From NCBI RefSeq assembly GCF_030817475.1, contig NZ_JAUSZJ010000002.1:3516626-3548625 (forward strand): a stretch of DNA of 32,000 nucleotides, in the 5' to 3' direction. Under the pieces are notes generated by a model. That model was not told the DNA's origin, did not search any database, and was given only the letters and a program-made list of their open reading frames with translations. The first letter of the stretch is position 1; every line of letters begins with the position of its first letter. The stretch is from Streptomyces sp. V2I9. GTDB lineage: Bacteria > Actinomycetota > Actinomycetes > Streptomycetales > Streptomycetaceae. Of this stretch, positions 5,470 to 26,331 are shown piece after piece. The position numbers and the translations under genes were made by a program.

Positions 5470-5824
5470 ACAGGGCGTCGGCCGGTCGGTGGCGGTTGTA
5501 GTGGAGGCCCGATTCCGGGTCGGAGTACCGGCCGGGGAAGCGCAGGGGGGTGTACGCGCCGGCGTCGCGGTCCCACGACGTGGCTCCCCACAGGACGGAT
5601 CGGGTGCGCCGCCCGGTCTCGTCGTCGGCGCGACCAGTGCCTGGTCGCGCCGAGGGAGTCCGAGTACCGGTGACGCGGCCGCCCGTCGCCGGCCGGACGT
5701 CGTAGGCGAACGTGGACGACAGATAGCCGTCCGGGCCGACCGTGCGGACCACGCGGCCGGCACCGTCATACACATAGCGGAACGTTGGGGTCGTTACCGT
5801 CCACGAGGTGATCCGGTCGTCCGG
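5470..5824 (-). pseudogene. Decayed RHS tail (YD repeats plus core end), truncated after HYN.H
   Basis: Minus-strand translation gives DRITSWTVTTPTFRYVYDGAGRVVRTVGPDGY...WGATSWDRDAGAYTPLRFPGRYSDPESGLHYNRHR. At least one frameshift is needed (DQALVAPT in another frame). There is no DPxGL end and no toxin domain. Confidence 0.65.
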
Positions 5825-5871
5825 ACGGCGGGAAGGGTGTTGAGGGCGTTTTCCCCCGGTGTCCCACCTCA

Positions 5872-6190
5872 GCTGCACACTGACCGGCTCGGCGTTGAGG
5901 TGGAGATGGTCCGCCCCCGTGCCACTCGCCGTCCCCCTCGATGGGGACGTCGGCATTGACGGCGGCGGCATCCGGCACGATCCCCCTCTGACGGAAACAG
6001 CATCGACCCGTCCGGGTGGGCCACGTTCACCGCGGCTCCGGCCCCGTCCACCACAGCCCCGCACCTCGGCGAACGGTGACAACGCCGCCTCCCCGGCGAA
6101 CCTGCACGCCCACCGCACCCCGCCGAACTCGGCGGTCCATCACCCCTTACGGTCGTACGGCACGAGCACCAGGGCCCGCCGCAGAGCCCC
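5872..6190 (-). pseudogene. Decayed sseB-like gene (from about codon 20 onward) plus the first ~18 codons of the WXG-like gene
   Basis: Homologous to 16650..17075. ALRRALVLVPYDRKG*WTAEFGGVRWACRF carries an in-frame TGA. VNVAHPDGSMLFP and VPDAAAVNADVPIEG lie in other frames. It then continues as SGTGADHLHLNAEPVSVQL, matching the MSGTGAEDLNVDPVSVQQ start of 16054..16707. Confidence 0.65.
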
Positions 6191-6205
6191 CGCTGGGGTC
6201 CGTCC

Positions 6206-6364
6206 TCACAGCGATCGTGCCGAAAACAGCAACGACGGCAGGCTGACCGCTGCTTCGTAGGAAGGGGCGGTCTTGTCGCATCCGGTTGCGATGCCGCGGA
6301 TGGCTTTGAGCCGGGTGAAGCAGCGTCCGGCGGTGTTGCGGCGGTGGTAGGTGTCGCGGTCGAA
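6206..6364 (-). pseudogene. C-terminal remnant of an IS5-family transposase
   Basis: FDRDTYHRRNTAGRCFTRLKAIRGIATGCDKTAPSYEAAVSLPSLL matches the conserved Y..RN.VERCF..LK..RGIATRYDK....Y tail of IS5-family DDE transposases. No N-terminal part is present. Confidence 0.6.
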
Positions 6365-6981
6365 GCCTGGCGGTCGGCCGACACCGGGACCGTTCCCTCC
6401 CCGCTCCCGTACTACCCCCACCACCTTCTCGAATCGCCTCATCCGCAAGCCGGTGAGTGTCTCCACCCACACGACTCAGCCGGCAACGCCCCCCATAGAA
6501 GAGAAGTGCCCTGACTCAGGCGTTCCGCACCAACCTTGAGAGGCTGTCCCTCTGACTTCACAGCGATCGAGCGACGTGCGAGGGTGGCCGCCGTGCAGCA
6601 GCTTGGTCACTGGAGGTCTGCGCGGAGATGTCAGTAGCGGTTGACCATGAGGCTGTCAGGGAATTATGGCGTCCCATCTCGCATTCTGCGCTGGCAGTTG
6701 ACGGCGAGCGGAACTGACGTGAGGGGCGCAACCTCATGACCTCTCCGCAGCGACTGCCGGCGACTCCCTGCCTCGTGCTCGGGGCAGAGCCTGGCTTGTT
6801 CTGGGGCTGGCTCCCCTCTCCGTACCGGCATGGGGGTCGGGCCCGGCTTGAATCCAACCTGTGTCGATGTCGCTCCGCTGGAATAGATGACCGTGCCCCT
6901 TTCCGCGAAATTTGAGGCGCGGCCACCCGTGCTCGCGCGACCTTTTGGTGATCTACTTAAGACTTGGATTGCGAGGAATGC

Positions 6982-7476
6982 ATGATGATTTGGTCGGCAG
7001 GGCAGAGGTTCAGGGAGGGGGATGTCTGCAAAGGGGTGGTATCTGATGTCTTCGACTTCGGCGTTTTCGTAGATCTTGGGGGTTGTGCGGGATTCGTCAA
7101 CCCCTCCGAGATCACATGGATGAAGTACGCGGAAATCACCGAAGTGATGTGCGAAGGGCGGGAGGTGAGTTCCCTGGTCATCGGTCACGCCCCTGCGCGA
7201 GAGCAAGTCCTCCTCTCCATCAAGGGCCTGGAGGAGGACCCCATGAAGAAATTTGCGCGCGAGCATTTTGGGGCATCTTTTACTGGGAGTGTCGTGATGG
7301 TGACGCCTGTCGGTCTTCTCGTTTCATTGCCGGGTGGAGTGAGCGGACTGCTCCCTGGGTCTGCAATGGTCGATATTGCTGATGAATATCGAGTGGGCGA
7401 TGAGATCTGTGTCGAGGTTGCCAGAATTAATCTTCATGAACGTCAGATCACACTCTCGCTGAGAGCTCGTACGTGA
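6982..7476 (+). CDS. Small protein with two S1-like RNA-binding (OB-fold) domains
   Basis: GDVCKGVVSDVFDFGVFVDLGGCAGFVNPSEI and FTGSVVMVTPVGLLVSLPGGVSGLLPGS...VGDEICVEVARINLHERQITLSLR fit the S1 motif twice. ATG 6982/6985 follows GAGGAA. Local G+C is about 50-58% by hand count, well below the surroundings. Confidence 0.6.
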   Translation: MMIWSAGQRFREGDVCKGVVSDVFDFGVFVDLGGCAGFVNPSEITWMKYAEITEVMCEGREVSSLVIGHAPAREQVLLSIKGLEEDPMKKFAREHFGASFTGSVVMVTPVGLLVSLPGGVSGLLPGSAMVDIADEYRVGDEICVEVARINLHERQITLSLRART

Positions 7477-7666
7477 GCTACCGTTTTGACGGGCTGCCAA
7501 CACCATGCAACCGGCCAGTGCGGCGCACCTGACCCGCAGGACTGTCGGCGTACGTGGGAACGCGGCCCTGGCAAGGTTTACGTGAAGCTAAGGGCTGTCC
7601 CGTAAATGATCTTCGCCGAGGCGGTGACATGAACGCCCGTGGGGTGGTTTGTCCGTTCAGCCGTTA

Positions 7667-8065
7667 CAGAGCCCCTGGATTACCGACCTTGGCCCGCCGC
7701 TCGGCGATTCGATCGCCCACCCGGTCGCCCACCGGAAGCCCTCCCTGTACGCGAGTCATCACCCTTCACTTCCGCGCACGCCAGGCCACCCCGCCCAGCT
7801 GCAACCACGTGGTTCTTGCCACCACCCAGCGCCCACACCACAGGCCGGCACTGAACACAAATAGGGCCCCAGTCGCTGACCAGTGCCTTCATGGAGGGAG
7901 CGGGGACGAGAATCGAACTCGCGCTCTGAGCTTGGGAATCAACGGTGCTTGGGCTGCCAGAGATGCTCTGACTTGGACTTTTGAATGTCGCCGGTAGATT
8001 GCCTCGGTCTTTGGGAGCCGCATCTGACCGCTGTTGTCCGCGCTGCTGGGCACGGATGGGGCACG
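7667..8065 (-). repeat. Module repeat copy C: arm, tRNA-Gly 3' fragment, degenerate hairpin, promoter region and first ~22 codons of the sseB-like gene
   Basis: Collinear with 16993..17482 and 10006..10485 at an estimated 70% identity by eye. The tRNA-Gly(CCC) 3' fragment at 7898..7938 has a 1-nt deletion. The sseB-like start reads VGDRVGDRIAERRAKVGNPGAL and then TAA at the breakpoint. Confidence 0.8.
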
Positions 8066-8311: not shown

Positions 8312-9067
8312 TCACCAGTTCTCGTAGTCCTCGATCAAGCGAGCCACAAGCTGGTGGAGCGCTGCTGCCCTGTTCAGGTCCTCCTTCTGTTCGCGCAGGG
8401 CCCGCTCAGTCGCCCGCAGCCGATGCCAGGCGTCCGGTTCCTTGTCCATCACGTCGTCGACCAGCGGGCGGGTGATCAGCGCGAGGCACTCGGCCAGTCG
8501 CCGCCTGGTGGATGGCGCCGGCGGCGCCAGGTCGGCGACGGCGTACCCGGTCGTCAGGTATCGGACAGGGTCGGCCAGGCTCCAGCCGACGACTGCCCCG
8601 GTCTGGACCAGGAGCGCCAAGCCTGGGGCGATACCGATCCGGGCATCCAGCGGAGTGTCGAGGATCGCGAGATTCCGCAGGCAGGCCAGTTCCGTCGCTT
8701 CGGGGTCGCAGCACAGCACCGCCGTCTGCGCGAGGGCAAAGTCGTTTGCCTCCTCCGCGCGGAGCCCGCCCCGGACGGCCCGGGGCTCGGTGGGAAGGCG
8801 GACTCCGGCCTCTGCCGGGGCGGATACGGCGGGCAGGTGGAGGCCCACGCCGACCAGCTCGCGGCTGCCGTTGTCGAACAGAAGGTCGTCGTTCTCCGAC
8901 CCCAGCCACTCCTGGCTTCCGAAGGTGCCGGGCAGCAGCCGCTCGAATTCCGCCCGGTCGGTGAACTCACCGACGACCAACTGGGGGATGTCGAGGGCGA
9001 GGCGCGGGGTGGACGTGAGCGGAGTATCCGTCACCACGGCGCGAAGGGTGTTCAGGGCGATTTCCAC
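8312..9067 (-). CDS. Putative cognate immunity protein of the orphan toxin cassette
   Basis: 251-aa ORF starting at GTG 9067, 12 nt after the orphan toxin stop, with GAGGTGGG upstream. No recognisable family. The role is inferred from position only. Confidence 0.55.
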   Translation of the reverse strand: MEIALNTLRAVVTDTPLTSTPRLALDIPQLVVGEFTDRAEFERLLPGTFGSQEWLGSENDDLLFDNGSRELVGVGLHLPAVSAPAEAGVRLPTEPRAVRGGLRAEEANDFALAQTAVLCCDPEATELACLRNLAILDTPLDARIGIAPGLALLVQTGAVVGWSLADPVRYLTTGYAVADLAPPAPSTRRRLAECLALITRPLVDDVMDKEPDAWHRLRATERALREQKEDLNRAAALHQLVARLIEDYENW

Positions 9068-9079
9068 AGGTGTCCCACC

Positions 9080-10005
9080 TCACCGGATCTGATCGGCGGG
9101 CGCCAGCGTGCCGCCTCGGCTGTCCGGAATGTTGCCGTTCACAATATCGTCATGGGTCACCGGCAGGCCGGGGTCGTCAGGCGATCCGCCGAATGCCTTG
9201 GCGCCGCTTTCCCCTCGGGTCCCCGAAGGACCGTAAGCGGTGATGACATCGCCCGCGCCGGCGCCCGGCCCCTTGGTGATCACGACGTCTTCTCCTTGCC
9301 GGAAGGTGAGGTTTCCTCGCTGTCCCTGGGAGTGGTAGACCGCGTCGGGGTTCTTGAGGATCTCCAGAACCCGGTCGTCGCTGAACTGGTGCCGTGTGTC
9401 GGCGTGGTAGTTGCCGGACTTCCTCATCTTCCCTTCCTGGGCCCGCTCGATCACCTGGTCGGCAACCTTCCGGGCCCTCTCCTTGGGACACTTGGGCATG
9501 AGGCCCAGCGGGTCGCACCAGGTGAAGGGGTTGTCGACGTAGGCGACCGGGTTCGGCCCTGGCGCCAGACCGAGTGGGTCGGGAGAGACGTAGCGGCCTG
9601 CTGCCGGATCGTAGTGGCGGAAGAGGTTGTAGTGGAGGCCGGTCTCCGGGTCGTAGTACTGGCCGGGAAAGCGCAGAGGGGTGTAGGCCGTACTCGTCCG
9701 TTCCCAGGCAGTGGTGCCCCAGATAGTGGTGCGGGTGCGCCAAGCTATATCGCCCGATTCGTCGACGAGTTCGGTGGGGGCACCGACGAGGTCGGTGGCG
9801 ATGGCGTAGAACCGCCGGTCGATCTCGTCCTGACGGGTGTCGGCGGTCAGGATGCGCTCGGTCTGGGCGAGAGGGACTCCGGCGCTGTGATCCCATGTGA
9901 TGACAACGGTGTTCGGCAGAGCGGACTCTCGCATGGTCTGTTCGCAGAGGGTGAGGCCGTCCCAGGCGAATCTGACCTCTTCGACGACGGTTCCACCGTC
10001 GGATG
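9080..10005 (-). pseudogene. Orphan RHS C-terminal cassette: last RHS repeats, core and an alternative toxin domain (DUF4258/BrnT-like?), lacking its own N-terminus and start
   Basis: EEVRFAWDGLTLCEQ...YTPLRFPGQYYDPETGLHYN...NPFTWCDPLGL is 106/160 identical (manual alignment) to the end of the main RHS protein. An unrelated 139-aa tail follows, with NYHADTRHQFSDDRVLEILKNPDAVY...GEDVVITKG...GDVITAYG. The only upstream start in frame is an arbitrary GTG at 10075 inside out-of-frame sseB-like sequence. Confidence 0.75.
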
Positions 10006-10485
10006 CCACCGAACTCAGCGGTCCACAACCCGCCACGGTCGTACGGCACGAGCACGAGAGTCCGCCGCAGCTCACCTACCAGGGCTTCCGGGTCACCGAC
10101 CCCGGCCCGCCGCTCGGCTATCCGATCCACCAGCGCTGACCCGTCACCCACTGGTGCCTCCCCCATACGCGAGTCGTCGCCCTTCACTTCCGCACACGCT
10201 AGGACACCACGCCCACCCGTAACCACGTGGTTCCAGCCGTCCCCACAGCCCCCACACCACGGACCGCCGCCGAATACGAAGAAGGCCCCGGTCGGAGACC
10301 GGGGCCTTCTGAAAGAGCGGGTGACGAGAATCGAAATCGCGCTCTGAGCTTGGGAATCAGCGGCTCTTACGCTGCTGGAGGGGCTCTGACCTGCGCTTTC
10401 GGATTGGTCAGGTGGATGGCTCCCGGTCTCTGGGAACCATATCTGACCGCTGTTGTCCGCTTCGCTGGGCACGGATGGGGCACGA
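10006..10485 (-). repeat. Module repeat copy B: 129-nt arm, tRNA-Gly 3' fragment, hairpin, promoter region and first ~50 codons of the sseB-like gene
   Basis: Arm 10357..10485 differs from 17354..17482 at 3 of 129 nt. tRNA fragment 10315..10356 matches 41/42. The sseB-like 5' part 10006..10151 differs at about 18 of 146 nt from copy A. Confidence 0.9.
10281..10309 (-). terminator. Hairpin downstream of the tRNA-Gly fragment (copy B)
   Basis: GAAGGCCCCGGTC-gga-GACCGGGGCCTTC, a 13-bp perfect stem. Confidence 0.55.
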
Positions 10486-10594: not shown

Positions 10595-11383
10595 TCATTC
10601 CGCTTTGCGCAGCAGCTCGATGACGGCGTTCTTCAATTCGTCGTCCGACAGGTCGTCCGGCTCCTTGAACTGCGGGTCGATGGAGTAGTCCTCCAGCAGC
10701 GAGAAGACACGATCGAGGAGCGTCTCCAAGGGATCGCGGACCCGCTCGCCCCGCTGCTGCGAACGACGACGTGCGTCGAGCCAACCGACGGCGAATTCCG
10801 CCCCCGTGCAGTGTCCGGCTGCTAGATCTCTCATCAGTGCCAGCTGCTGGCCCGTGGCGGTGGCCTCCGGAACGTCCCTCGGGTACTTCCAGGCGATGTG
10901 TCCGGGAGGAAACGACCGCGCGGTCGACTCCAGAGCGGGCCATTTCCGTGCTGCTGCCCGAGCGTAACGGGCGAAGCGAGCACGCGCCTGGTCCACTCCC
11001 TCTGGCGCTGCTCCCGCGAGGAACGCCGACGTGCCGGCGACCAAGGCGTAGCCCGGTCCGGGAAAGAGGACCGCGCCCTCCAGGTTCGCAGCGACGAGCA
11101 GAAGATCCGCAGGCAGCGAGACAAGGCCCGGATCGGCCGGCGGCAGGCTGTCCGCAGTGGCGATTGCCCCGACGGAGGGGTGAATCACCAGGACGGCGTC
11201 GGCGCCTGCAGTCCGGCATCCCTCGGTGATACGCCTGACCAGAGAGTCGTCCGTGTGACTGCCTGCCGGCACCGGGGCGACCTTCTTCTCTCCTGCCGCG
11301 AGCCATTGTCCGCTGAAGGCGCCCTGCCTGTCGAGAACAGCCATGGCGTTTCCAGCTCCGCCCTCGTTCGACCCTGTCACCAT
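10595..11383 (-). CDS. Immunity protein of the main RHS toxin: unknown N-terminal domain fused to a colicin-immunity-like C-terminal domain
   Basis: Its ATG overlaps the RHS stop (ATGGTGA at 11377..11383). The C-terminal ~85 aa (LALMRDLAAGHCTGAEFAVGWLDARRR...LLDRVFSLLEDYSIDPQFKEPDDLSDDELKNAVIELL) fits the pattern I recall for the bacterial self-protective colicin-like immunity family. Confidence 0.75.
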   Translation of the reverse strand: MVTGSNEGGAGNAMAVLDRQGAFSGQWLAAGEKKVAPVPAGSHTDDSLVRRITEGCRTAGADAVLVIHPSVGAIATADSLPPADPGLVSLPADLLLVAANLEGAVLFPGPGYALVAGTSAFLAGAAPEGVDQARARFARYARAAARKWPALESTARSFPPGHIAWKYPRDVPEATATGQQLALMRDLAAGHCTGAEFAVGWLDARRRSQQRGERVRDPLETLLDRVFSLLEDYSIDPQFKEPDDLSDDELKNAVIELLRKAE

Positions 11384-14300
11384 AGGAACCCTTTATCGAT
11401 GATGCTCTGAAATTGCTTGTCGCCCAGTTTATAGCCTGACCAGAATTTTCCGGTGTCCGCGTGTAGCATGACCATCTTCTGAGTGGTCGGGTCAATGAAG
11501 CCGATCGCTTGTCCTTGGCCTCTGTAGTCGAATCGATAAATCTTCGTGTCATCCGCTTTTATGTGAGCCCGCATGCTATCTTCGAACCTTTGGAGATTCG
11601 CCTTTTTGAGATTACCCGGCTCGTCCAGGAAATCTCCCGCGTGTGCGTGGAATTTCTTGCTCATCACACTCTGGCTGGAGAAGTCGGCTTTTTCTTCCCA
11701 CCCCCCTCGGGGGCAGGGGCCGAGCCCCAGCGGATCGGACCATGTGTGGGGGTTGTGGACGTAGGTACGGGGGTTGGGTGCAGGTGAGAGGCCGAGGGGA
11801 TCGGCTGTGAGGTAACGGGCGGTCTGCGGATCGTAGTGCCGGTGGTGGTTGTAGTGCAGGCCGCTCTCCGGGTCGTAGTACTGACCGGGAAAGCGGAGCG
11901 GCGTGTAGGTCGTGCTGTCTCTCGCCCATGTCGTACTGCCCCAGAGAGCCGCGCGGGACTGCCATCCCACGTTCCCGGTCTCATCGATGAGTTCGGTGGG
12001 GGTGCCGATCAGGTCGGTGGCGATCGCGAAGAATCGCTCGTCGATCACGTCCTGTCGCGTGTTCGAGGACAGGATGCGTTCGGTCTGGGCGATCGGGCGA
12101 ATACCGTCGTGATCCCAGGTGAGCGTGACTGGACGAGGAAGCTCCGAAGACAACGTGGTCTGCTCGCAGAGCGTGGTGCCATCCCAGGAGAAACGGACCT
12201 CCTCGCCCGTGGGGTCACCCATGTCGGAAAGCCGGACTTTGCTTGTGCGGCGGCCAAGGGGGTCATAGCGGTAGCGCCACGCGATGCCGTCCGGGGTGGT
12301 CACCGCCGTCAGGCGGTCCTCGACATCCCACGTGTACCGCCAGGTGTCGGGCTTGCGGGACAGCCGTGTCTTCCGGCGGACGGTGACCCGGCCCAGAGCA
12401 TCGTGCTCGAACCGGAGCGCGCCGGCGCGAATGATCTCCGTGCCGGTGTAGGAACGAGGTCCCGTAGCCTCCTGGCCGGGATGGGAGGCAGTCCAGGACG
12501 CCGAAGTCTGATTTCCGTCGGCGTCGTAGGAGTAGCTCTCGGCCCATCGGTCCGCTGTGACGGACACGACCCGGCCGACAGCGTCCAGGGTGAACCGCGA
12601 CATGCCGCGCAGTGTGTCGTCGACCGCTGTGAGCCGGTCGTCGGCGTCGTAGGTGTAGGACCGGCGGTTCACTGTGTCTTCGCCACTGAAGATGTGCTGT
12701 GTGACCAGCCTGCCAGCGCCGTCCCACGCCGAGTTGAAGGTCAGCTCGGGGCCGAAAGCGCGCGTCAGTTCGCGGCCCGCCAGGTCGTGGGTGAACGCGA
12801 TGGTCCGGTTGCCGCTGATCAGCTCGGTGAGCCGGTCGGAGGCGTCGTAGGCGTACCTGGTGCGCTGACCGGTGGGTGTCACGCGCTGGGTCCGGCGGCC
12901 CAGCGCATCGTAGGTATAGGTGGTGACTCGGCCGTCGGCTATCTCTACTTTCACACGGCCGATTCGGTTGTACTGATAGAGCAGTTCGCTTTCCGGCCCC
13001 ACAGCATGGAGCAGGCGCCCCGCTCGGTCGTAGGAGAAGGTCGTCACCGTGCCCGCCGCGTCTTTGCGGGTAACTCGGCCGCACGCGTCACGCTCGTACG
13101 TGATGGACTCACCCAGCGAGTTGGTGCGCGTGACTACCTGTCCGGCAGCGTCCGACTCGTAGCTGAGCGTGCGGCCGTCGAAGTCCGTCTCCGAAACGAG
13201 CCGTCCCGCAGGGTCGCGTGTGTACGACCACACCGAGCCCAGCGTGTTCCGGACCTGCGTGAGGTTGAGGTCGCCATCGTGCTGGAACTCGAAACTCGCT
13301 CCTCCGGGTGACCTGCTCGCCGAGAGAAGATCGAAGTGCGTGTACTCGAAGTGGGACTCCCGTCCGAGCGCGTCGACGTGACGCGTACAGTTCCCTTCGC
13401 CGTCGTAGGTCCAGGACTCCTTGGAACCGTCAGGGGTGGTACGACTGGCCAGCTCTCCGTCGGCTGACCATTCCAGGACCGTGGTCGCACCCAGGGCGTC
13501 GGTTATCCGGACAGGGCGACCAAGGAGGTCCCGCTGGTAACGGGTGGTGGCACCGACGGCGTCCGTGACCGCCACAGGCTGCCCTGACGCATCGCACCGT
13601 ATCGAGGTGACCGCCCCGAGCGGGTTGGTCGTCCCGGTCAGGAAACCGGCAGCGTCGTAGCTGTAGCGCGTTGTGTGCCCCATGGGATCGGTGACGGCGG
13701 TCCGGTTACCACGGTCGTCGAACTCCTGCAGCCAACGAGCACCATCTTGAGCCGTGTAGTGAGTTGGCAGGCCGAGCCGGTCGAAGACGATGCGCTCCTC
13801 ACTGCCATCGGGGTGGAGGACCGCGGTCTGTCTCCCCTCCTCGTCGTACTGGTGAGTTGTGGCGCGACCGAGTGGGTCGGTGAGCGTGAGCAGCCTTCCG
13901 CGGGTGTCGTGGGTGAAGCGAGTGGTATGGCCGAGCGGGTCCGTCGTGGAGAGGATGCGGCTGCCTCTACCGACGAGATAGCGGGTGGTGTGACCGCGCG
14001 CGGTCGTCAGAGAGGTCGTGCGGTGGCCGGTCCCCGTGTCCGGATCGCTGTAGGCGAGGGTCATCTGCAGGTGGCCGCCCTCACCTCCCTGCGCGATCAC
14101 GCGGTCGTTGTTGTCGTAGGTGTAGTCGTAGCGGTGGTTGTTGGAGTCGATCCAGGCGGTGATCCGCCCTCGATCGTCGTAGATGAAGGTGAGTGTGGCG
14201 CCGGACGGTTTCGTGACGGTGGTGAGATCGCCGCCCGTGTAGCCGTAGGACCTGATGGGGGTGGCCGCGCCTGTCTCGTCTCTCACACTCAGCACGGTGA

Positions 14301-16050
14301 TCCCCGTTTCGGTGCTGGTGAGCGAGAGGCGGTACCCGGCGGAGTGGGCGAGTTCCTGGGGTGTCCCGTCCTCGGTGCGGTCGATGCTGATGGCGTTGTC
14401 GTTGCGGTCGCTGATCTGGACGAGCCATGCGGTTCCGTCCTGGCCGGGTTCCGTTCCATGAGGAGCGGAGAAGTACTTGGTCAGTCGAGTGTCGGAGTCG
14501 GTGAGGGTGTAGTCGCCGGATTCATCACGGCTCAGGGAATTGCGTGAGGTGCCGGATTCCGGGTGGGTGGGCAACCCGGGCAAGGGGTGGGGGTAAGTGA
14601 TGAGCAGGCCGTCGGCGGTGACGTGGATGACGCCGTGGGCGTCGATCTCCAGGCGTTCGTCGACGGTGGAGGACCAGGAGGGTCCGAAGAACCGGCCGGC
14701 TGTGTACCCGGACTCGAAGCGACGCGTGAATGTCAGGGGCAGTACGCCGGGGAGCCTCACGTCGGTCTGAGGAAGGAACATGCGACCGGAGGCGAGGTCG
14801 ACCGGGTCGGTTCCCCCGCTGGTGCGCTCGCTGTCGGGGCGGTTGTGGGTTCCTTCGGGTGCGGCGCGCTCCAGCTTGCGGGCGTCGGAGGCGAGGTCGG
14901 CGGCCTCCTTCACCACTCGGGCTCCCTTGACGCCGGCCCCCGCGCCGCCGGTCGCGGCGGTGAGGGCGAGGTCCGGCAGGAGCCGGCCGAACCCCTCGGC
15001 GGGGTCCTTCATGAAGTCGGTGACCATCTGCTTGCCGGTGCCCCAGGGGTCGTTGGCGACCCGGACGAGGCCGGCGGCGGTGTTGTTGAGCGCGAGTCCG
15101 TACTCGGCGGGGTGGGTGATGTTGTACGGGTCGGTCGGGTTGACGCTCCGCGCGAAGTTCAGGATGCCTGCCGCGCCCTTGACGACGCCGCCCGCGATAT
15201 GAGTCTGGATCACCTGGTACTCGGCGAGCCCGTCCAAAGCCTGCTCGGCGTACCGGGGCTTCGGCGGCGCGGAGTCCCGGGCCGCGGTGACGGCCTTGCG
15301 TGCGATGTCGGCGGCGGTGTTGCGCTGCTTGCGCGCCTCCGCGAGCAGCGACTGCGCCTCCTCCATCCGCCCGATGCCCGGGTCCGTGAACGCGCCGGGC
15401 TTGGGCGGCAGCGAGGAGGGGTCACGGTCGTCGGCGGGCTTGGCGTTGTACGCGTCGACGGCCTTCTTGTACGTGTCCGCCTTGGCGTTGTACGCGTCCC
15501 TGGCCTCCTCCGACGCCTTGGTTCCCGCCTTCCACTTGTCGATCGCGGTCTGCGCCTGCCCCTGCGCCCACTCCACGGTCCCGGCGAAGGAGTCGAGCGC
15601 GCCGGCGGCCTTCTCGAAGGCGTCGGCTGCCTTGAACCACTTGGGCGGCTCGATGGACACGGAGTCCCGGAAGGCGTCGGCGGCCTGCCCCTTGAGCGCG
15701 GAGGAGTCGACCCCCTTGAGTCCACCGCCGACCTGGTCGAACGACCCCTGCAACTTACGGAGATGGGTCGCGGTGGACCGGATCGTGGACGGGCTGCCGT
15801 AGATGAGCTTGGTCTTGTCCTCGGTCTGCCCGAGGTCCATCTCGTCGACCTCGGCGCCCATCCGGTTCGCCACCGAGCGGGACTTCTCCCGGACCCAGTC
15901 CGCCCCGGACTCCCAGCCGACGTCCTCGAGCCGGTCGCCGGTCCAGTTCCCGGCGTCCTCGACCCGGTCACCCGCCCACTCGACACCGTCCTCGACCGCG
16001 TCCTCGACGACATCGGGCGTGATGTCACTGACGAAATCCCCGAACCCCAT
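11377..16050 (-). CDS. RHS-repeat polymorphic toxin with a T7SS-signal-type N-terminal domain and a colicin D-like C-terminal toxin domain
   Basis: 1557 aa. The N-terminal helical region reads IYGSPSTIRSTATHLRKL...GQAADAFRD...KWFKAADAFEKAAGALDSFAGTVEWAQGQA. The DUF6531-like segment is DPVDLASGRMFLPQTDVRLPGVLPL. Dozens of YD repeats follow (Y.YD..GR). The core ends YTPLRFPGQYYDPESGLHYNHHRHYDP...TWSDPLGL, followed by a 113-aa variable tip. Confidence 0.95.
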   Translation of the reverse strand: MGFGDFVSDITPDVVEDAVEDGVEWAGDRVEDAGNWTGDRLEDVGWESGADWVREKSRSVANRMGAEVDEMDLGQTEDKTKLIYGSPSTIRSTATHLRKLQGSFDQVGGGLKGVDSSALKGQAADAFRDSVSIEPPKWFKAADAFEKAAGALDSFAGTVEWAQGQAQTAIDKWKAGTKASEEARDAYNAKADTYKKAVDAYNAKPADDRDPSSLPPKPGAFTDPGIGRMEEAQSLLAEARKQRNTAADIARKAVTAARDSAPPKPRYAEQALDGLAEYQVIQTHIAGGVVKGAAGILNFARSVNPTDPYNITHPAEYGLALNNTAAGLVRVANDPWGTGKQMVTDFMKDPAEGFGRLLPDLALTAATGGAGAGVKGARVVKEAADLASDARKLERAAPEGTHNRPDSERTSGGTDPVDLASGRMFLPQTDVRLPGVLPLTFTRRFESGYTAGRFFGPSWSSTVDERLEIDAHGVIHVTADGLLITYPHPLPGLPTHPESGTSRNSLSRDESGDYTLTDSDTRLTKYFSAPHGTEPGQDGTAWLVQISDRNDNAISIDRTEDGTPQELAHSAGYRLSLTSTETGITVLSVRDETGAATPIRSYGYTGGDLTTVTKPSGATLTFIYDDRGRITAWIDSNNHRYDYTYDNNDRVIAQGGEGGHLQMTLAYSDPDTGTGHRTTSLTTARGHTTRYLVGRGSRILSTTDPLGHTTRFTHDTRGRLLTLTDPLGRATTHQYDEEGRQTAVLHPDGSEERIVFDRLGLPTHYTAQDGARWLQEFDDRGNRTAVTDPMGHTTRYSYDAAGFLTGTTNPLGAVTSIRCDASGQPVAVTDAVGATTRYQRDLLGRPVRITDALGATTVLEWSADGELASRTTPDGSKESWTYDGEGNCTRHVDALGRESHFEYTHFDLLSASRSPGGASFEFQHDGDLNLTQVRNTLGSVWSYTRDPAGRLVSETDFDGRTLSYESDAAGQVVTRTNSLGESITYERDACGRVTRKDAAGTVTTFSYDRAGRLLHAVGPESELLYQYNRIGRVKVEIADGRVTTYTYDALGRRTQRVTPTGQRTRYAYDASDRLTELISGNRTIAFTHDLAGRELTRAFGPELTFNSAWDGAGRLVTQHIFSGEDTVNRRSYTYDADDRLTAVDDTLRGMSRFTLDAVGRVVSVTADRWAESYSYDADGNQTSASWTASHPGQEATGPRSYTGTEIIRAGALRFEHDALGRVTVRRKTRLSRKPDTWRYTWDVEDRLTAVTTPDGIAWRYRYDPLGRRTSKVRLSDMGDPTGEEVRFSWDGTTLCEQTTLSSELPRPVTLTWDHDGIRPIAQTERILSSNTRQDVIDERFFAIATDLIGTPTELIDETGNVGWQSRAALWGSTTWARDSTTYTPLRFPGQYYDPESGLHYNHHRHYDPQTARYLTADPLGLSPAPNPRTYVHNPHTWSDPLGLGPCPRGGWEEKADFSSQSVMSKKFHAHAGDFLDEPGNLKKANLQRFEDSMRAHIKADDTKIYRFDYRGQGQAIGFIDPTTQKMVMLHADTGKFWSGYKLGDKQFQSIIDKGFLW
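11380..11717 (-). other. Variable C-terminal toxin domain (CT1) of the RHS protein, a low-GC module
   Basis: Hand count gives 159 G+C in 320 nt over 11381..11700 (about 50%) versus 45/60 in 11701..11760. The peptide is SKKFHAHAGDFLDEPGN...YRFDYRGQGQAIGFIDPTTQKMVMLHADTGKFWSGYKL. Confidence 0.7.
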
Positions 16051-16053
16051 GGC

Positions 16054-16707
16054 CTAGTTCCCCCCGCCGCCCTGCTGCTCCTTCTGCCGCGCCCGCTCCT
16101 CGGGCGATGGCCCGAACATGTCGTCCACGGACCGGTCGAACGTCTGCTGATCCACACCGAACAGCTCTTTCAGCTGCTCCGCCTGTCGACCGCCGTTCCC
16201 CTCGGTGACGAGCGCCCGTCCGGTGTCCTTCCAGGTCTGCCCGGCCTCGTCCGCCGCCCGCTCGAACGACTCGCGGCTGTAGTCGGGGCTCAGATAGTCC
16301 GGGGTGAACACATCGCCCCACCCCTGCTTGACGATCTCGTCCTCGGAAGCATGCGGATTCCCCACGCCCGCGTTGACGACGATCTTCAACGTGCCCTGGA
16401 CGTACTGGTCCTCCTCCCACACGATCCCCGCCGCCAGCCCGAGCTTCGCCGCGATCGCGTTGGCGTCCTGGACGAGCGCGCGGACGCCCCACTCCCACCG
16501 CTCGCAGAAGTCCTCGAAGTCCACGGACAGCCCGTGATGTCCGGCCTCCATCCCGGTCATCGACAGCTCGGACAGCCCTTTGCCCAGCACGGCCCCCGTG
16601 CCGTCCCCGATCTCCTTCAACTCGGCCACGGCCCCGCGCAGCCCGCTGGTAATCTGCTGAACGCTGACCGGATCGACGTTGAGGTCCTCGGCCCCCGTAC
16701 CGCTCAC
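16054..16707 (-). CDS. 217-aa helical WXG100-like/T7SS-partner-like protein of unknown function
   Basis: GTG start overlaps the upstream stop (GTGA at 16704..16707), and its stop lies 3 nt before the RHS ATG. The helical N-terminal half has FEDFCERWEWGVRALVQDANAIAAKLG. The C-terminal half is charged and Gly-rich. Confidence 0.75.
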   Translation of the reverse strand: MSGTGAEDLNVDPVSVQQITSGLRGAVAELKEIGDGTGAVLGKGLSELSMTGMEAGHHGLSVDFEDFCERWEWGVRALVQDANAIAAKLGLAAGIVWEEDQYVQGTLKIVVNAGVGNPHASEDEIVKQGWGDVFTPDYLSPDYSRESFERAADEAGQTWKDTGRALVTEGNGGRQAEQLKELFGVDQQTFDRSVDDMFGPSPEERARQKEQQGGGGN

Positions 16708-17138
16708 AGGTCCCGCCCCTCGCTCGGTACGTCCGCATCGACGGCGACGGCATCCGGCACGATCCCCACCACTGGCGGGAACAGCATCGACCCGTCCGGA
16801 TCAGCCACATTCACCGCGACCCCGGCCGGCACCCCCATCGCCGGAATGACCTCGTCCAGCAACCGGGCCCCCCGGAACGCGGCGTACTCCCAGCTCCTGG
16901 AGCCGGCCCCGGCCATCCCTTCCAGCACGGCCCGCTCCTCGGCGAACCGGGCCAGAGCGGCCTCATCGGTGAACCCGCACACCCACCGCACCCCACCGAA
17001 CTCGGCGGTCCACAACCCACCCCGGTCGTACGGCACGAGCACCAACGACCGCCGCAGCTCACCCACCAGAGCCCCCGGATCACCGACCCCGGACCGCCGC
17101 TCGGCTATCCGATCCGCCAGAGCTACCCCGTCAGCCAT
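16704..17138 (-). CDS. SseB-family-like protein, first gene of the RHS toxin operon
   Basis: ORF 16704..17273 trimmed to ATG 17138. The pattern LRRSLVLVPYDRGGLWTAEFGGVRWVCGFTDEAALARFAE...GVAVNVADPDGSMLFPP fits the SseB N-terminal domain as I remember it. Confidence 0.75.
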   Translation of the reverse strand: MADGVALADRIAERRSGVGDPGALVGELRRSLVLVPYDRGGLWTAEFGGVRWVCGFTDEAALARFAEERAVLEGMAGAGSRSWEYAAFRGARLLDEVIPAMGVPAGVAVNVADPDGSMLFPPVVGIVPDAVAVDADVPSEGRDL

Positions 17139-17143
17139 CGAAT

Positions 17144-17158
17144 CCCCCCCCCCCCCCC
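17144..17158 (-). repeat. Homopolymer C15 (G15 on the coding strand) in the ribosome-binding region of the sseB-like gene
   Basis: Counted directly: 15 consecutive C at 17144..17158, ending 5 nt upstream of ATG 17138. Copy B has GGGGGAGG at the equivalent place. Confidence 0.95.
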
Positions 17159-17191
17159 GGATACGCGTGCTGTCGCCCTTCACTCCTGCAC

Positions 17192-17235
17192 ACGCTAGGG
17201 CACCACGCACGACGGCAACCACGCGGTTCCAGCCG
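17192..17235 (-). promoter_or_regulatory. Putative promoter of the RHS toxin operon
   Basis: Minus strand reads TTGCCG-N15-TAGCGT about 55 nt upstream of the ATG. TAGCGT is kept in copy B (10196..10201) and is degenerate in copy C. The spacing is sub-optimal and this is pattern-based only. Confidence 0.2.
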
Positions 17236-17276
17236 TCCCCACAGCCTCCACACCTCGGCCGGGCCCCGAACACAAT

Positions 17277-17305
17277 GAAGGCCCTGGTCTCCGACCAGGG
17301 CCTTC
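17277..17305 (-). terminator. Hairpin downstream of the tRNA-Gly fragment (copy A)
   Basis: GAAGGCCCTGGTC-tcc-GACCAGGGCCTTC, a 13-bp perfect stem. Confidence 0.55.
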
Positions 17306-17522
17306 ATCAAAGAGCGGGTGACGAGAATCGAACTCGCGCTCTGAGCTTGGGAATCAGCGGCTCTTACGCTGCTGGAGGGGCTCTGACCTGCGCTTTCGGA
17401 TTGGTCAGGTGGATGGCTCCCGGTCTCTGAGAACCATATCTGACCGCTGTTGTCCGCTCTGCTGGGCACGGATGGGGCACGAGAGCTGGCAGTGCGACGC
17501 GTGATCCGGGCGGGCCGGCTGG

Positions 17523-17924
17523 TCAGAGGGAGATGATGCGCACTTGGTTGCCGCAGAGCTTGTTCATGTCGTCGCTGTCGGACGTCAGCAGGGCGACGGG
17601 TTTCGGCTGGCGGAGGGCGACCTCGGCGACCGTGGCGTCGAGGGCGTACTTGTGCCTGTGCAGTCCGGCACCTTTGAGGAGTACAGCCGCCGCTTTCGCC
17701 GACTGTTCGGTGACCGGCTCCACCTTGACGCGGGAGAGGACCCAGTTCAGGGCGAGGCGCGTTGGTACGGGAGTGGCTGACTTCCACAATGGTGGTGGCC
17801 CGATGACCAGGTTGGCTCCCATGTCATGGAAGACTTGAAGCATCGCGAGGAGCTTGCGGTCCTGCGCGATCCAGGCGGAGAGCCCTTCCGAGTCCAGGAC
17901 GACGGTTTCGATGCGCTCGCTCAC
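17523..17924 (-). CDS. vapC: PIN-domain toxin (VapC family)
   Basis: VVLDSEGLSAW near the N-terminus and LLTSDSDDMNKLCG near the C-terminus. GTG start overlaps the antitoxin stop (GTGA at 17921..17924). Confidence 0.75.
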   Translation of the reverse strand: MSERIETVVLDSEGLSAWIAQDRKLLAMLQVFHDMGANLVIGPPPLWKSATPVPTRLALNWVLSRVKVEPVTEQSAKAAAVLLKGAGLHRHKYALDATVAEVALRQPKPVALLTSDSDDMNKLCGNQVRIISL

Positions 17925-18169
17925 GCGGCGTCCGCACCCGTGGAGGTGCCGGCGGAGCCGAAGATCTTCGCGCGAGCCTCGGCGAGCTCCTCGTCGCTGA
18001 AGGGACCGTGCTCTTCCTCGTGACGGCGGAGGTCGTCGACCAGAAGCTGGTGCCGGATCTGGCGGGATACGGCTTCCGCCACGTACCCGGAGACGTTGTC
18101 CGTGAGCTTGCGGAGCTCCGCCACCTGGTCGCTGGGCAGCGTGACAGTGATGCGAGTCGTTGAGGGCAT
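17921..18169 (-). CDS. vapB: Ribbon-helix-helix type antitoxin (VapB-like)
   Basis: 82 aa, MPSTTRITVTLPSDQVAELRKLTDNVSGYVAEAV (beta-strand then helix-helix pattern). Translationally coupled to the PIN gene. Confidence 0.65.
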   Translation of the reverse strand: MPSTTRITVTLPSDQVAELRKLTDNVSGYVAEAVSRQIRHQLLVDDLRRHEEEHGPFSDEELAEARAKIFGSAGTSTGADAA

Positions 18170-18356
18170 CAAACCAATCATATTGGAGTATGCGAGGGTC
18201 GGCTGAGTCACAGGCCCCTGCCTTGATGGTTGCGACCGCATGCGTCGGGTGATGACAGAGCAGCCGCTCTCCGGCCGTCCACTGGGGGGCAAGGATTTGG
18301 ACCGACGCCGCTGGAGGGCAAGCGAAAGGCCCCGGTCTCTGACCAGGGCCTTCATT

Positions 18357-19241
18357 GAGCCCTTTCCAACCTGACGGTGTGCGCCGGTGGTTGGCGGGAT
18401 ATGCGAAGCGGTGAAGCTCCTGGTAGACGGGTTCACGACCAAGATCACCCGTGCCGACCAGGAGCTTCGCGTGCTTGTCTACCCATCGGCGATCGATCTG
18501 TCCAGTGGCCATCTGCGCCACCTCGCCGGGCACCTGGCTGCGCGTCGTCGTGAGATCGGCACCCGGTGGCGGCGCATCACGCCGGGCCGCCAGGCCCTCC
18601 TGGTTCTGGCGCATCTGCGCTGCGGTGACACCTACGCCCAGCTTGCCGCCGGGTTCGGCATCGGGGTCGCGACGGTCTACCGCTATGTCCGCGAGGCGAT
18701 AGAAGTCCTGGCCACGCTCGCTCCCAGCCTGGCCCAGGTCATGCGGACCGCGAGCCGCCCGGCCTTTGTGATCCTCGACGGCACCCTGCTGCCGATCGAC
18801 CGAATCGCCGCCGACACCCCGTACTACTCCGGCAAACACAAACGTCACGGCATGAACGTCCAGGTTCTCACCGACCCGTTCGGCCGCCTGCTGTGGGCTT
18901 CGCCCGCGCTGCCCGGCTCCACCCACGACCTGACTGCGGCCCGCACTCACGGGATCGTCGAAGCTCTCGCCGCTGCCGAACTCAAGTGCTGGGCGGACAA
19001 GGCATACCAAGGTGCCGGCTGCCCGGTCCGGGTGCCCTTCCGCGGCCGTCGCCTCAAGCGGTGGCAGCGCCGGCACAACAGTACGCACGCCAAGATCCGC
19101 TGCCTCGGCGAGCAGGCCATGGCCGCCCTGAAGGGCTGGCGACTGCTACGGAAGCTCCGCTGCAGCACGAACCGGATCACCGACGTGGTGAAGGCCGTCC
19201 TCGTCCTTCACCACGCGACAGCGTGAGGTTGGAAAACCCTC
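18357..19241 (+). mobile_element. Small (about 0.89 kb) IS element with a single DDE_Tnp_4-type transposase gene
   Basis: Imperfect terminal inverted repeats GAGCCCTTTCCAACCTG (18357..18373) and GAGGTTGGAAAACCCTC (19225..19241) match at 13/17. The transposase stop lies inside the right repeat. No clear target duplication was seen. Confidence 0.65.
18471..19226 (+). CDS. Transposase, PIF/Harbinger-like DDE (DDE_Tnp_4) with an N-terminal HTH
   Basis: LAHLRCGDTYAQLAAGFGIGVATVYRY (HTH), then VILDGTLLPIDR...YSGKHKRHGMNVQVL...GSTHDLTAAR...WADKAYQG. The start is set to GTG 18471 (VLVYPSAIDLS), typical for this family. The track ORF starts at 18387. Confidence 0.8.
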   Translation: MLVYPSAIDLSSGHLRHLAGHLAARRREIGTRWRRITPGRQALLVLAHLRCGDTYAQLAAGFGIGVATVYRYVREAIEVLATLAPSLAQVMRTASRPAFVILDGTLLPIDRIAADTPYYSGKHKRHGMNVQVLTDPFGRLLWASPALPGSTHDLTAARTHGIVEALAAAELKCWADKAYQGAGCPVRVPFRGRRLKRWQRRHNSTHAKIRCLGEQAMAALKGWRLLRKLRCSTNRITDVVKAVLVLHHATA

Positions 19242-20046: not shown

Positions 20047-21369
20047 CTATTCCTGTGCGGGTCGTCCGAGCTGGCGTACGGTCCATCCGGCCATGCGCCA
20101 GGCGTCGGCGTCGATGAGGTTGCGGAGGTCGACGAGGACTTGGTCCGCGACCAGTGGGGCGAGGGCCTTGGGGTCGGCCTCGCGGAAGTGGGGCCATTCG
20201 GTGGCCAGGACGATCAGCTCGGTTGCCGCGAGGGAGTCTTCGAGGCTTTCGCAGTAGTCGAGTTCGGGGTGGCGGCGCAGTGCTGTGGGCACGGCGTGCG
20301 GGTCGTGGACGGTGACGGTCGCGCCGCGCTGGTGCATGAGGGCGGCGATCGCCAGGGCGGGGGATTCGCGGACGTCGTCGGTACCGGCCTTGAAGGACGC
20401 GCCCCAGACGGTGATGCGTACGCCGTCGACGGGTCGGCCGAGCGTCTGCTCGATGAGCTTCAGTGCGGCGGTGGGTCGGGATTCGTTGACCTCCTCCGCC
20501 GCGCGCAGCATGGTCGCTGCTTCGGCGGCGCCCAGGGTGCGGGCGGAGGCGGTGAAGGCGCGGACATCCTTGGGGAGGCAGCCGCCGCCGTAGCCGGGGC
20601 CGGCGTTGAGGCCGCCGCGGCCGATGCGGGGGTCCAGGCCGATGGCTTCGGTGAGCTGCTGGACGTCGGCTCCGGCGGCGGTGCACATGTCGGCGACGCC
20701 GTTGATGAAGGAGATCTTCATGCCGAGGTAGGCGTTGGCGGCGCCCTTGATGAGTTCGGCGGTGGCGGGGTCGGTCACGAACAGCGGGATGCCGTTCGCC
20801 AGGAGGGGTGCGTAGACCTCACGTACCGCGTCCTCGGCGCGGGCCGAGGGCACGCCCACGACGATGCGGTCGGGGCGCAGGGTGTCGTCGATGGCGTGGC
20901 CCTCGCGCAGGAACTCGGGGTTCCAGACGACCTCCACGTCCTCACCGGCCGGAGAGAGCCGGGCGAGGAGAGCACCGAGGTCGCGGGAGGTGCCGACGGT
21001 GACCGTGGACTTGCCGATGACGACCGTGGGGCGGGTCAGGTGCGGGGCCAGGGCGCGGGCGGCGCCGAAGACCTGTCCGGTGTCGTAGCTCCGCCCGTCC
21101 GCGTCGATGGGCGTGCCCACGGCCAGGAAGTGGATGTCGGCGAACTCGGCTGCCTCAGCGAGGCTGGTGGTGAACCGCAGGCGGCCGGTGGCGGTGTGGG
21201 TGCTGAGGAGTTCGGGCAGGCCGTCCTCGTAGATGGGGCACTCGCCGGTGTTGAGGCGGTCGATCTTCGCCTGGTCCAGGTCCACGCCGATGACCTCGTG
21301 GCCGATCTCGGCCATGGCAGCGGCGTGGGGAATGCCCAGGTGACCACAGCCGATGACGGATACGCGCAT
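20047..21369 (-). CDS. ugd: UDP-glucose 6-dehydrogenase
   Basis: MRVSVIGCGHLG Rossmann start, NPEFLREG, catalytic GYGGGCLPKD, and the C-terminal WGASFKAGTDDVRESPA UDP-binding domain. GGAAAGGAG precedes the ATG. Confidence 0.9.
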   Translation of the reverse strand: MRVSVIGCGHLGIPHAAAMAEIGHEVIGVDLDQAKIDRLNTGECPIYEDGLPELLSTHTATGRLRFTTSLAEAAEFADIHFLAVGTPIDADGRSYDTGQVFGAARALAPHLTRPTVVIGKSTVTVGTSRDLGALLARLSPAGEDVEVVWNPEFLREGHAIDDTLRPDRIVVGVPSARAEDAVREVYAPLLANGIPLFVTDPATAELIKGAANAYLGMKISFINGVADMCTAAGADVQQLTEAIGLDPRIGRGGLNAGPGYGGGCLPKDVRAFTASARTLGAAEAATMLRAAEEVNESRPTAALKLIEQTLGRPVDGVRITVWGASFKAGTDDVRESPALAIAALMHQRGATVTVHDPHAVPTALRRHPELDYCESLEDSLAATELIVLATEWPHFREADPKALAPLVADQVLVDLRNLIDADAWRMAGWTVRQLGRPAQE

Positions 21370-21476
21370 GGGTCGACGCTCCTTTCCTTGTCCCTCGCCC
21401 GCCCAGGGGAGTCCGGGCCGGCCGGGTGCGTCACGCTAGCGCCAACACCCGGCGCGGCCCTCTTCGTGCAGGTGGA

Positions 21477-26257: not shown

Positions 26258-26331
26258 TGGAGCGGGTGACGAGAATCGAACTCGCGCTCTGAGCTTGGGA
26301 AGCTCATGTTCTACCATTAAACTACACCCGC
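26258..26331 (-). tRNA. tRNA-Gly (anticodon CCC), CCA encoded
   Basis: Reverse complement is GCGGGTG TA GTTT AATGGTA GAAC A TGAGC TTCCCAA GCTCA GAGC GCGAG TTCGATT CTCGT CACCCGC T CCA. This folds as a full cloverleaf of 74 nt with discriminator U. Confidence 0.95.

Follow-up and report, generated by a model that had tools for sequence, protein, structure and literature searches.

Can a type VII secretion system (T7SS) handle a toxin the size of an entire RHS shell? This question is raised by a four-gene locus of Streptomyces sp. V2I9, a member of the S. griseus/anulatus/globisporus group. The genes lie on the minus strand at positions 10595-17138 of a 32,000-nucleotide (nt) stretch of contig NZ_JAUSZJ010000002.1 (RefSeq assembly GCF_030817475.1, positions 3,516,626 to 3,548,625), which we refer to as the window, and encode, in order, an SseB-like protein of 144 amino acids (aa), a 217-aa helical protein, a 1557-aa RHS toxin and a 262-aa protein. 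Their nearest homologues, with identities of up to 96%, are found in S. globisporus, S. anulatus, S. sindenensis and S. griseus. We consider it probable that the locus is an RHS toxin/immunity cassette for interbacterial competition that brings its own two-protein export module, and that its toxin is exported by a T7SS.

Gene coupling and co-evolution of the proposed export module

The first-pass annotation had described four tightly coupled minus-strand genes, and all of its coordinates and junctions hold. The TGA stop of the SseB-like gene (16704..17138) shares GTGA (16707-16704) with the GTG start of the 217-aa gene (16054..16707); the TAG stop of the latter (16054-16056) is followed by three bases (gcc) and then by the toxin ATG at 16050; and within ATGGTGA (11383-11377) the TGA stop (11377-11379) of the RHS gene (11377..16050) overlaps the ATG of the 262-aa gene (10595..11383). 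A scan of species-representative genomes returned at least 593 relatives of the 217-aa protein, of which the best 80, all from Streptomyces, were examined. The tight spacing is not due to chance, since the same order, with gaps of 0-13 nt or start/stop overlaps, recurs across these 80 species loci and, outside Streptomyces, in three further genera of actinomycetes. GC content at third codon positions (GC3) is 0.82-0.86 in the SseB-like, 217-aa and RHS frames, the range expected for Streptomyces coding frames; the 262-aa frame failed the same filter.

The first gene likely starts at ATG 17138, because the N termini of its homologues begin at the same residue; a longer GTG open reading frame (ORF) reaching 17273 is unlikely to be real because its frame crosses a hairpin and a tRNA fragment (described below). 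A consensus promoter scan was uninformative in this high-GC organism. Five nucleotides 5′ of the ATG, at 17144-17158, the coding strand carries 15 consecutive G at a position occupied by GGGAGGGCTTCC in other copies and in other genomes. The Logan contig L001 has the identical run, which may be phase-variable or may have arisen as a sequencing artefact.

Among the 80 species loci, an SseB-like gene stands directly upstream of the 217-aa gene wherever sequence was available (approximately 75 loci), and an ORF with the Pfam domain T7SS_signal stands directly downstream in 77, in which SseB-like gene, 217-aa gene and toxin gene are contiguous in this order. The three exceptions are decayed, showing a truncated RHS gene, Imm50 immunity genes alone or unrelated genes. 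Homologues of the 217-aa protein with only 30-38% identity occur in the same overlapping triad in Amycolatopsis, Lentzea and a strain of Pseudonocardiaceae, with other payloads: the T7SS_signal protein of Amycolatopsis sulphurea ends in an ADP-ribosyltransferase and has an ADP-ribosylglycohydrolase gene near it, that of Pseudonocardiaceae bacterium YIM PH 21723 is 1404 aa long and is followed by TNT-domain genes, and the toxin of Lentzea aerocolonigenes measures 464 aa. A glutamine-deamidase fusion was also found, in a degraded context, and a copy of the module is carried by S. venezuelae ATCC 10712. Two expectations of the first-pass annotation were thus borne out when checked, namely that the gene order is conserved across actinomycetes and that the two upstream genes accompany such toxin genes in other genomes.

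Across the 67 complete Streptomyces loci, the identities to the window of the SseB-like protein, the 217-aa protein, the T7SS_signal domain and toxin residues 300-410 correlate with one another at r = 0.75-0.90, the highest value (r = 0.90) being that between the 217-aa protein and the toxin N-terminal domain. The RHS shell is decoupled from this module (r = 0.25-0.41) and is usually 52-65% identical even where the module is 90-95% identical. The two small proteins therefore belong functionally to the toxin's N-terminal domain and not to its shell or payload. Together with the first ~410 toxin residues, they make up one co-evolving unit, kept across Streptomyces and Pseudonocardiales and reused whatever the payload, be it an RHS-borne tRNase, an ADP-ribosyltransferase or a TNT-linked protein.

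Sequence relationships of the toxin and its partners

The N-terminal secretion-signal domain that the first-pass annotation had read from the letters alone gave a strong profile match, to T7SS_signal (PF21725, E 8.6e-94), over toxin residues 15-265 (15256..16008, minus strand, as for all features of the operon). Inside it, residues ~83-170 (15541-15804) form a predicted WXG100-like hairpin with the motif L-K-G-x-AADAF. In an alignment of 12 Streptomyces loci and two distant homologues, the Streptomyces form L-[KR]-G-x-AADAF falls on H-W-S-G-D-AADAF and H-W-Q-G-S-AGDAY, and thus reads as a classic WXG signature with L in place of W. The best matches of a profile of the T7SS_signal alignment among PDB sequences were Staphylococcus aureus EsxA (2VRZ/2VS0, E 0.08) together with an ESAT-6-like pair of Mycobacterium abscessus (4I0X), aligned end to end over residues 83-170, with E values of 0.08-0.4 for these matches taken together; we regard these matches as weak but consistent. 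The single RHS N terminus, compared with the same sequences, found nothing. The domain is followed by a conserved extension (residues 266-410, 14821..15255) outside all Pfam models, which is 61-95% conserved across the Streptomyces loci, co-varies with the export module and is also present in the non-RHS toxin of Amycolatopsis. An acidic leader at residues 17-50 (15900-16000) contains repeated (V/L)ED..(W)xG-like units (EWAGD, NWTGD, GWESG); it is conserved in Streptomyces and absent from the distant homologues.

The 217-aa protein of the window has no significant match in Pfam, NCBIfam or PADLOC. Its family comprises 215 clusters at 50% identity and shares the core motif FCxRWxWGVRxLVQD. Of 51 representatives scanned, 24 match EspC (PF10824, best 1.6e-7), the most frequent family match, and 22 match WXG100 (PF06013) at 15-21 bits against a cutoff of 27.3; the alignments span the entire profile, over residues ~3-100. 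The AlphaFold2 model is all-helical (predicted local distance difference test, pLDDT, 78.6): a first helix (13-33) leads through a structured turn into a long second one that begins at residue 58. Together these point to an EspC/WXG100-like hairpin (residues ~5-105) with a helical tail of ~110 residues. The protein is twice the length of a WXG100 protein and has the turn MEAGHHGL, without WXG, and is related to the WXG100 family but not a member of it. The earlier label 'WXG-like' holds for the family; the window's own copy lies below the Pfam thresholds and is no true WXG100 protein.

A YxxxD/E motif at the end of the second helix is reportedly the export signal of T7SS substrates. At this place, one alignment column of the family holds Y in 35 of the 51 representatives and F in another 3, and 49 have D or E four residues later; [YF]xxx[DE] can be read from this column in 38. 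The signal is summarised in PMC13492133.

For the 144-aa protein, the window copy scores 12.4 bits on SseB (PF07179) against a cutoff of 21 (E 0.18), and neither NCBIfam nor PADLOC gave a match; its family profile found nothing among PDB sequences. The label 'SseB-like' is nevertheless sound for the family: of 31 homologues sampled, 30 hit PF07179 at E<=1, with 8.2e-6 as the best value, and the Pseudonocardiaceae orthologue, at 21.6 bits, reaches the gathering score. The protein has more than 1200 homologues, some of which are labelled 'SseB family' in some sources. We regard it as a putative cytoplasmic chaperone or adaptor, and the 217-aa protein as a putative T7SS targeting or co-secretion factor.

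Judged by its domains, the remainder of the 1557-aa protein makes it a canonical RHS polymorphic toxin, that is, a shell with a variable tip and an immunity gene downstream. A DUF6531 plug (PF20148, E 2.4e-21; residues 415-486, 14593..14808) closes the N-terminal side of the shell, which is built of YD repeats (PF05593, 14 stretches, E 4.8e-93; TIGR01643, 16 stretches). The RHS core region (residues 1345-1443, 11722..12018) matches PF03527 at residues 1345-1374 as well as TIGR03696, NCBIfam agreeing with Pfam on YD repeats and an Rhs-associated core, and contains two DPLGL motifs, at residues 1417 and 1439, spaced as DPLGL-x17-DPLGL in the manner of a self-cleavage motif. Similarity to the C terminus of a second RHS protein in the window ends right behind the second DPLGL. 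The N-terminal sequence that the first-pass annotation had quoted and all parts that had been proposed for this protein (plug, YD repeats, core with DPLGL, variable tip) are present, and the tip (residues 1444-1557, 11380..11721) can now be named: residues 1465-1548 match Colicin_D (PF11429) at 32.7 bits against a cutoff of 25 (E 1e-7), and colicin D entries 1TFO, 1V74, 1TFK and 5ZNM were found among PDB sequences at E 3.4e-6. The tip's KKF-HAHAGDF aligns with KKY-KHAGDF of colicin D, conserving KKxxHAGDF, the stretch that we take to carry the catalytic histidine of colicin D. We thus predict a colicin-D-type tRNase.

Only five of the other 80 loci carry the same tip (L007, L015, L020, L022 and L064). 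Homologues of the 262-aa protein occur in all five, always directly after the tip, and in none of the remaining loci. The 262-aa gene therefore behaves as the cognate immunity gene, and the earlier suggestion of an immunity gene downstream of the toxin is strengthened by its co-variation with the tip. The C-terminal 66 residues of the protein resemble Colicin_immun (PF09204) weakly, at 18 bits against a cutoff of 22 (E 0.005); no relative was found in the PDB, ImmD included, and NCBIfam and PADLOC gave no match for the immunity proteins.

Export route, precedents and rival explanations

How might such a toxin leave the cell? Beside the observed domain identities, gene linkage and co-evolution, we infer three steps: pairing, chaperoning and T7SS dependence. 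The WXG100/EspC-like N-terminal domain of the 217-aa protein would pair with the toxin hairpin (residues 83-170) in a four-helix bundle resembling EsxA-EsxB, PE-PPE or LXG-Lap, and the 217-aa partner would provide the export motif of the YxxxD/E type kept in most of its family. In analogy to EspG or to the chaperones of the DUF4176 family, the SseB-like alpha/beta protein would hold the complex in an export-competent state in the cytoplasm before the complex is passed to the ESX/T7SS ATPase EccC, which would be encoded elsewhere in the genome. After export, autoproteolysis would free the tRNase from the shell to cut the tRNA of a competitor, while the immunity protein would shield the producer and its kin.

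In layout, the locus resembles the LXG toxins of the T7SSb in Bacillota, for which Lap partners with an FxxxD signal and DUF4176 chaperones do the targeting and chaperoning (PMC9600955, PMC10801868, PMC12478183). Both combine a polymorphic toxin that has an N-terminal helical domain of the WXG100 superfamily with one or more small helical partners directly upstream (one bearing an aromatic-xxx-acidic export signal, here in most of the family), an extra non-helical chaperone (here a candidate), an immunity gene downstream and tight coupling. The V2I9 locus differs in belonging to Actinomycetota and hence to the T7SSa context, in having one 217-aa partner instead of the two ~100-aa proteins Lap1 and Lap2, in its SseB-like chaperone candidate and in carrying an entire RHS shell as payload; LXG (PF04740), DUF3130 and DUF3958 were matched by none of the locus proteins, even at E<=10, and DUF4176 gave no match. 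It is thus similar to the LXG-Lap systems in layout without being a member of them.

Two further precedents are actinobacterial. Mycobacterium tuberculosis reportedly carries an operon esxF-esxE-cpnT-ift, which shares with the V2I9 locus the T7SSa link (a proposed one in our case), small Esx-type partners just upstream of a large toxin whose C terminus is an enzymatic tip, and a gene for an immunity factor behind it. Among the distant triads found here, one adjoins TNT-domain genes. CpnT has an outer-membrane channel domain where the toxin described here has an RHS shell and T7SS_signal, its partners are two canonical ~100-aa WXG100 proteins, and an SseB-like gene is present only in our locus. 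PE-PPE-EspG and EspA-EspC are said to be ESX substrate-chaperone sets, and the likeness lies in a heterodimeric helical bundle (in our case a predicted one), a YxxxD/E motif on one partner (in most of the 217-aa family) and a cytosolic alpha/beta chaperone (here a candidate), EspC being also the most frequent Pfam match of the 217-aa family. PE, PPE and EspG have no sequence match here, the EspC matches are sub-threshold, and the mycobacterial substrates are virulence factors whereas the payload here is an antibacterial polymorphic toxin. By analogy, the best-supported model is that of a T7SSa counterpart of LXG-Lap-chaperone and of Esx/PE-PPE-EspG.

The shell itself recalls the Rhs proteins of the Gram-negative type VI secretion system (T6SS), with PAAR/VgrG and EagR, and those genetically linked to the T7SSb in Listeria (PMC10327511, PMC11217815). 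Common to them are a YD shell, a DPxGx18DPxG self-cleavage motif, a C-terminal tip that can be swapped and has its cognate immunity protein, downstream orphan modules of tip and immunity gene, and chaperones (putative ones here) dedicated to the N-terminal region. In place of PAAR or a prePAAR transmembrane segment, the V2I9 toxin has T7SS_signal, and its two small partners are unrelated to EagR (DUF1795).

A number of observations weigh against export by a T7SS as outlined above. None of the T7SS core genes (eccB/C/D, mycP, esxA/B) lies in the 32-kb window, in the inspected parts of the 20-kb loci or among the genes called around the distant triads. The WXG-type similarities are all sub-threshold, PF21725 is itself named 'putative', and neither the 217-aa nor the 144-aa protein of the window has an above-threshold family match in Pfam or NCBIfam. 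In the window protein and its close relatives the export motif reads V-W-E-E-D (Tyr to Val). Of the predicted models, that of the 217-aa protein is locally confident but has a predicted template modelling score of 0.41 and returned only noise in a Foldseek search of the PDB (its family profile likewise found nothing among PDB sequences), and that of the SseB-like protein is poor (pLDDT 48.6) and gives a chaperone fold no support. To our knowledge, no T7SS has ever been shown to export a folded RHS shell that exceeds 100 kDa. The Rhs-T7SS links in the literature searched are genetic only (PMC11217815, PMC10327511), and the same search gave no paper in which antibacterial toxins of Streptomyces depend on a T7SS, and none on PF21725, on a connection of SseB to a T7SS or on these two partner families.

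Several of these points would suit a different reading, in which toxin and immunity protein are as described but export bypasses the T7SS and the small proteins act inside the cell, where they stabilise the N-terminal domain or help to assemble it; the toxin would then be released by developmental cell lysis, surface display or an unrecognised machine. The lack of ecc/esx genes nearby, the sub-threshold similarities to WXG100, EspC and EsxA under a Pfam name that says 'putative' and the loss of the motif Tyr in this clade all fit it, as do the roles given for the Streptomyces T7SS in the literature searched, which are developmental (Fyans 2013, cited in PMC13492133). We nonetheless hold it to be unlikely: the toxin N-terminal domain and the 217-aa partner point independently, and in full-length alignments, to the WXG100 superfamily; the diagnostic W/LxG and YxxxD/E motifs sit at the expected places; the layout mirrors LXG-Lap and EsxEF-CpnT; and none of the three proteins matches, in Pfam, a domain of another known export route. 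More improbable still, in our estimate, is that the 217-aa protein is co-secreted and acts outside the cell as part of a pore or translocon, like EsxE/EsxF for CpnT or EspC filaments, helping the toxin to exit the producer or to enter the target while the SseB-like protein serves as chaperone of the 217-aa protein and not of the toxin. EspC as the most frequent family match (24 of 51), a conserved helical C-terminal half that doubles the WXG100 length, and the discussion of WXG100 proteins as channel-forming components (PMC13492133) speak for such a role, but the correlation of r = 0.90 with the toxin N-terminal domain fits a direct binding partner equally well. That the operon is a silent or decaying relic like the two modules downstream of it (see below), without current function, we regard as very improbable indeed. 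It does sit in an array of degraded copies, and a 15-G homopolymer replaces the usual GGGAGG ribosome-binding site 5′ of the first gene; yet its four reading frames are intact with conserved starts, the SseB-like, 217-aa and RHS frames have high GC3, and identical protein sequences are found in another public assembly, near-identical orthologues being widespread. Export of the toxin by a T7SS, with the two small proteins as its module, remains the reading that we prefer.

A tRNA-Gly-bounded cassette in an array

The first-pass annotation had called the operon self-contained, which does not hold: it overlooked tRNA-Gly repeat boundaries and two displaced RHS-tip/immunity modules directly downstream, and because these repeats bound the operon and these modules adjoin it, the locus is a cassette inside an array and not a stand-alone operon. 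The array is anchored by an intact tRNA-Gly(CCC) gene (26258..26331, minus strand) and contains three 42-nt copies of tRNA positions 31-72, which begin with the anticodon loop at its first base, end at the acceptor end and are 98-100% identical (100% for the copy at 17312-17353). Each copy belongs to a repeat unit of ~330-380 nt, in which a conserved 130-nt block X precedes the tRNA fragment while the terminator hairpin of the tRNA and a leader come after it; the 5′ end of an SseB-like gene follows the unit. Unit A (17139..17520, minus strand) forms the upstream boundary, with X at 17354-17482, the tRNA fragment at 17312-17353, the hairpin at 17257-17309 and the leader with its G run at 17144-17158; unit B (10157..10485, minus strand; tRNA fragment 10315-10356), 89% identical to unit A, forms the downstream one, its fragment lying 6997 bp from that of unit A. 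The four genes are thus a discrete 7.0-kb unit between direct repeats of the 3′ part of tRNA-Gly(CCC), and the intact head of the array.

Behind unit B follows a displaced module, B (8312..10151, minus strand), in which codons 1-50 of an SseB-like gene (SseB′, 10002-10151) are fused out of frame to an RHS C terminus (ORF 9080-10075) whose different, 139-aa tip has no family match; the 251-aa product of 8312-9067 is its probable immunity protein. The same type of SseB′::tip fusion occurs in locus L007. A decayed module, C (5477..8065, minus strand), consists of unit C (7739-8065, tRNA fragment 7897-7938), an SseB″ pseudogene (7667-7729 and 5934-6190) with frameshifts and a ~1.5-kb low-GC insert (GC 0.59) between codons 24 and 26, and an RHS core remnant (5477-5623). 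The insert contains a plus-strand ORF with two S1 RNA-binding domains (6964-7476).

The same repeat units bracket RHS operons in related genomes. In Streptomyces pakalii (L005, 2258-14588) two complete SseB-like/217-aa/RHS operons stand in tandem, each behind a unit of X and tRNA fragment. In L023 and L033 an intact tRNA-Gly gene lies 160-350 nt upstream of the SseB-like gene and a ~105-nt direct repeat (tRNA 3′ part and hairpin, without X) lies behind the immunity gene, the repeats of L023 enclosing exactly the four genes. The units of related genomes also bracket ~1-kb cassettes of a CcdA-like antitoxin gene and a gene for a 133-aa partner. In the window such a pair, at 17523-18181 (minus strand), ends 3 nt before unit A, its ribbon-helix-helix antitoxin gene (86 aa, Pfam E 5e-5) overlapping the partner gene; the same pair is present at L004 17568-18226 and L010 5365-6023. 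An identity of the partner as PIN/VapC was rejected for want of Pfam support.

Boundaries in the anticodon loop are reportedly a signature of integrase-type insertion. No integrase domain was found in the window ORFs scanned or among the ORFs inspected in related arrays, and integrase-mediated mobility was accordingly rejected, except in so far as a recombinase acts in trans. Site-specific capture, serial and in trans, may have been at work, as may homologous exchange between the repeats. Tentatively, we can picture self-sufficient, integrase-less mobile cassettes, each of toxin, immunity gene and two T7SS adaptors, that are captured serially at tRNA-Gly(CCC) by a trans-acting recombinase, every event leaving a scar of X and tRNA 3′ fragment; the array would then be an integron-like weapon store, with small antitoxin-like gene pairs as further cassettes, in which older cassettes are displaced and decay to immunity-only remnants. 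Block X could be an arm site of the recombinase: its 5′ part is highly conserved, with a tandem direct repeat CGTGCCCCA / CGTGCCCAG, and a 7-bp inverted repeat (CAGCGGT ... ACCGCTG) surrounds a variable middle of ~85 nt. That X and the tRNA fragment form a structured RNA was rejected for now, Rfam giving no credible match and RNAalifold on nine copies a covariation term of 0.06, with no real compensatory support for the conserved pairs.

The nearest analogue is found in tandem tRNA/tmRNA islands and integrase-less, cis-mobilisable elements such as the ssrA islands of Dehalococcoides (PMC3146451), where, likewise, direct repeats of the 3′ part of an intact tRNA, starting at its anticodon loop, stand in series behind it and each closes one inserted module. 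Here, in contrast, neither the window nor the inspected related loci yielded an integrase, the modules are as small as 1-7 kb and hold only a toxin operon or a small antitoxin-like gene pair, and the 130-nt block X precedes each repeat.

An insertion sequence with a DDE_Tnp_4 transposase (18387-19226, plus strand) adjoins a lone copy of the hairpin (18326-18357); the antitoxin cassette probably lost its upstream repeat unit through destruction by this element. The ~9-kb stretch between the intact tRNA-Gly and unit A (genes at 20047-25887) encodes a DUF1932 NAD-binding protein, a 436-aa HTH_31 protein, a 471-aa protein with a faint SIR2 match and a UDP-glucose dehydrogenase; it contains no integrase and no credible PADLOC defence-system match, and the DUF1932 and HTH_31 genes have the same arrangement in S. 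anulatus JCM 4721 (L003). Beyond the tRNA, the window shows a perfect 42-nt tandem duplication (27138-27221) and, just after a phosphoribosyltransferase gene, approximately six tandem copies of the 31-nt unit TGGGCCCGCCCGGCCGTCACCCCCCTGACCG (28330-28516).

The class to which this toxin belongs was already predicted, as actinobacterial RHS polymorphic toxins with a WXG-type N-terminal domain, and in 2012 such domains were taken to mark T7SS substrates (PMC3482391). New are the conserved export module of three parts, among them an SseB-like protein and an EspC/WXG-like partner of double length, the reuse of this module across payloads and genera together with its decoupling from the RHS shell, and the arrangement as tRNA-Gly-bounded, integrase-less cassettes. 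For the question whether the T7SSa is used in bacterial warfare, as the T7SSb is in Bacillota, the locus offers a compact and testable export module in the SseB-like protein, the 217-aa EspC/WXG-like partner and the toxin's first ~410 residues. It also suggests a likely job for two protein families that are mostly annotated as 'hypothetical', with the copy in S. venezuelae ATCC 10712 as an entry point for secretion genetics in model streptomycetes, and the repeat-bounded, integrase-less cassettes at tRNA-Gly suggest how such weapons get exchanged and stockpiled.

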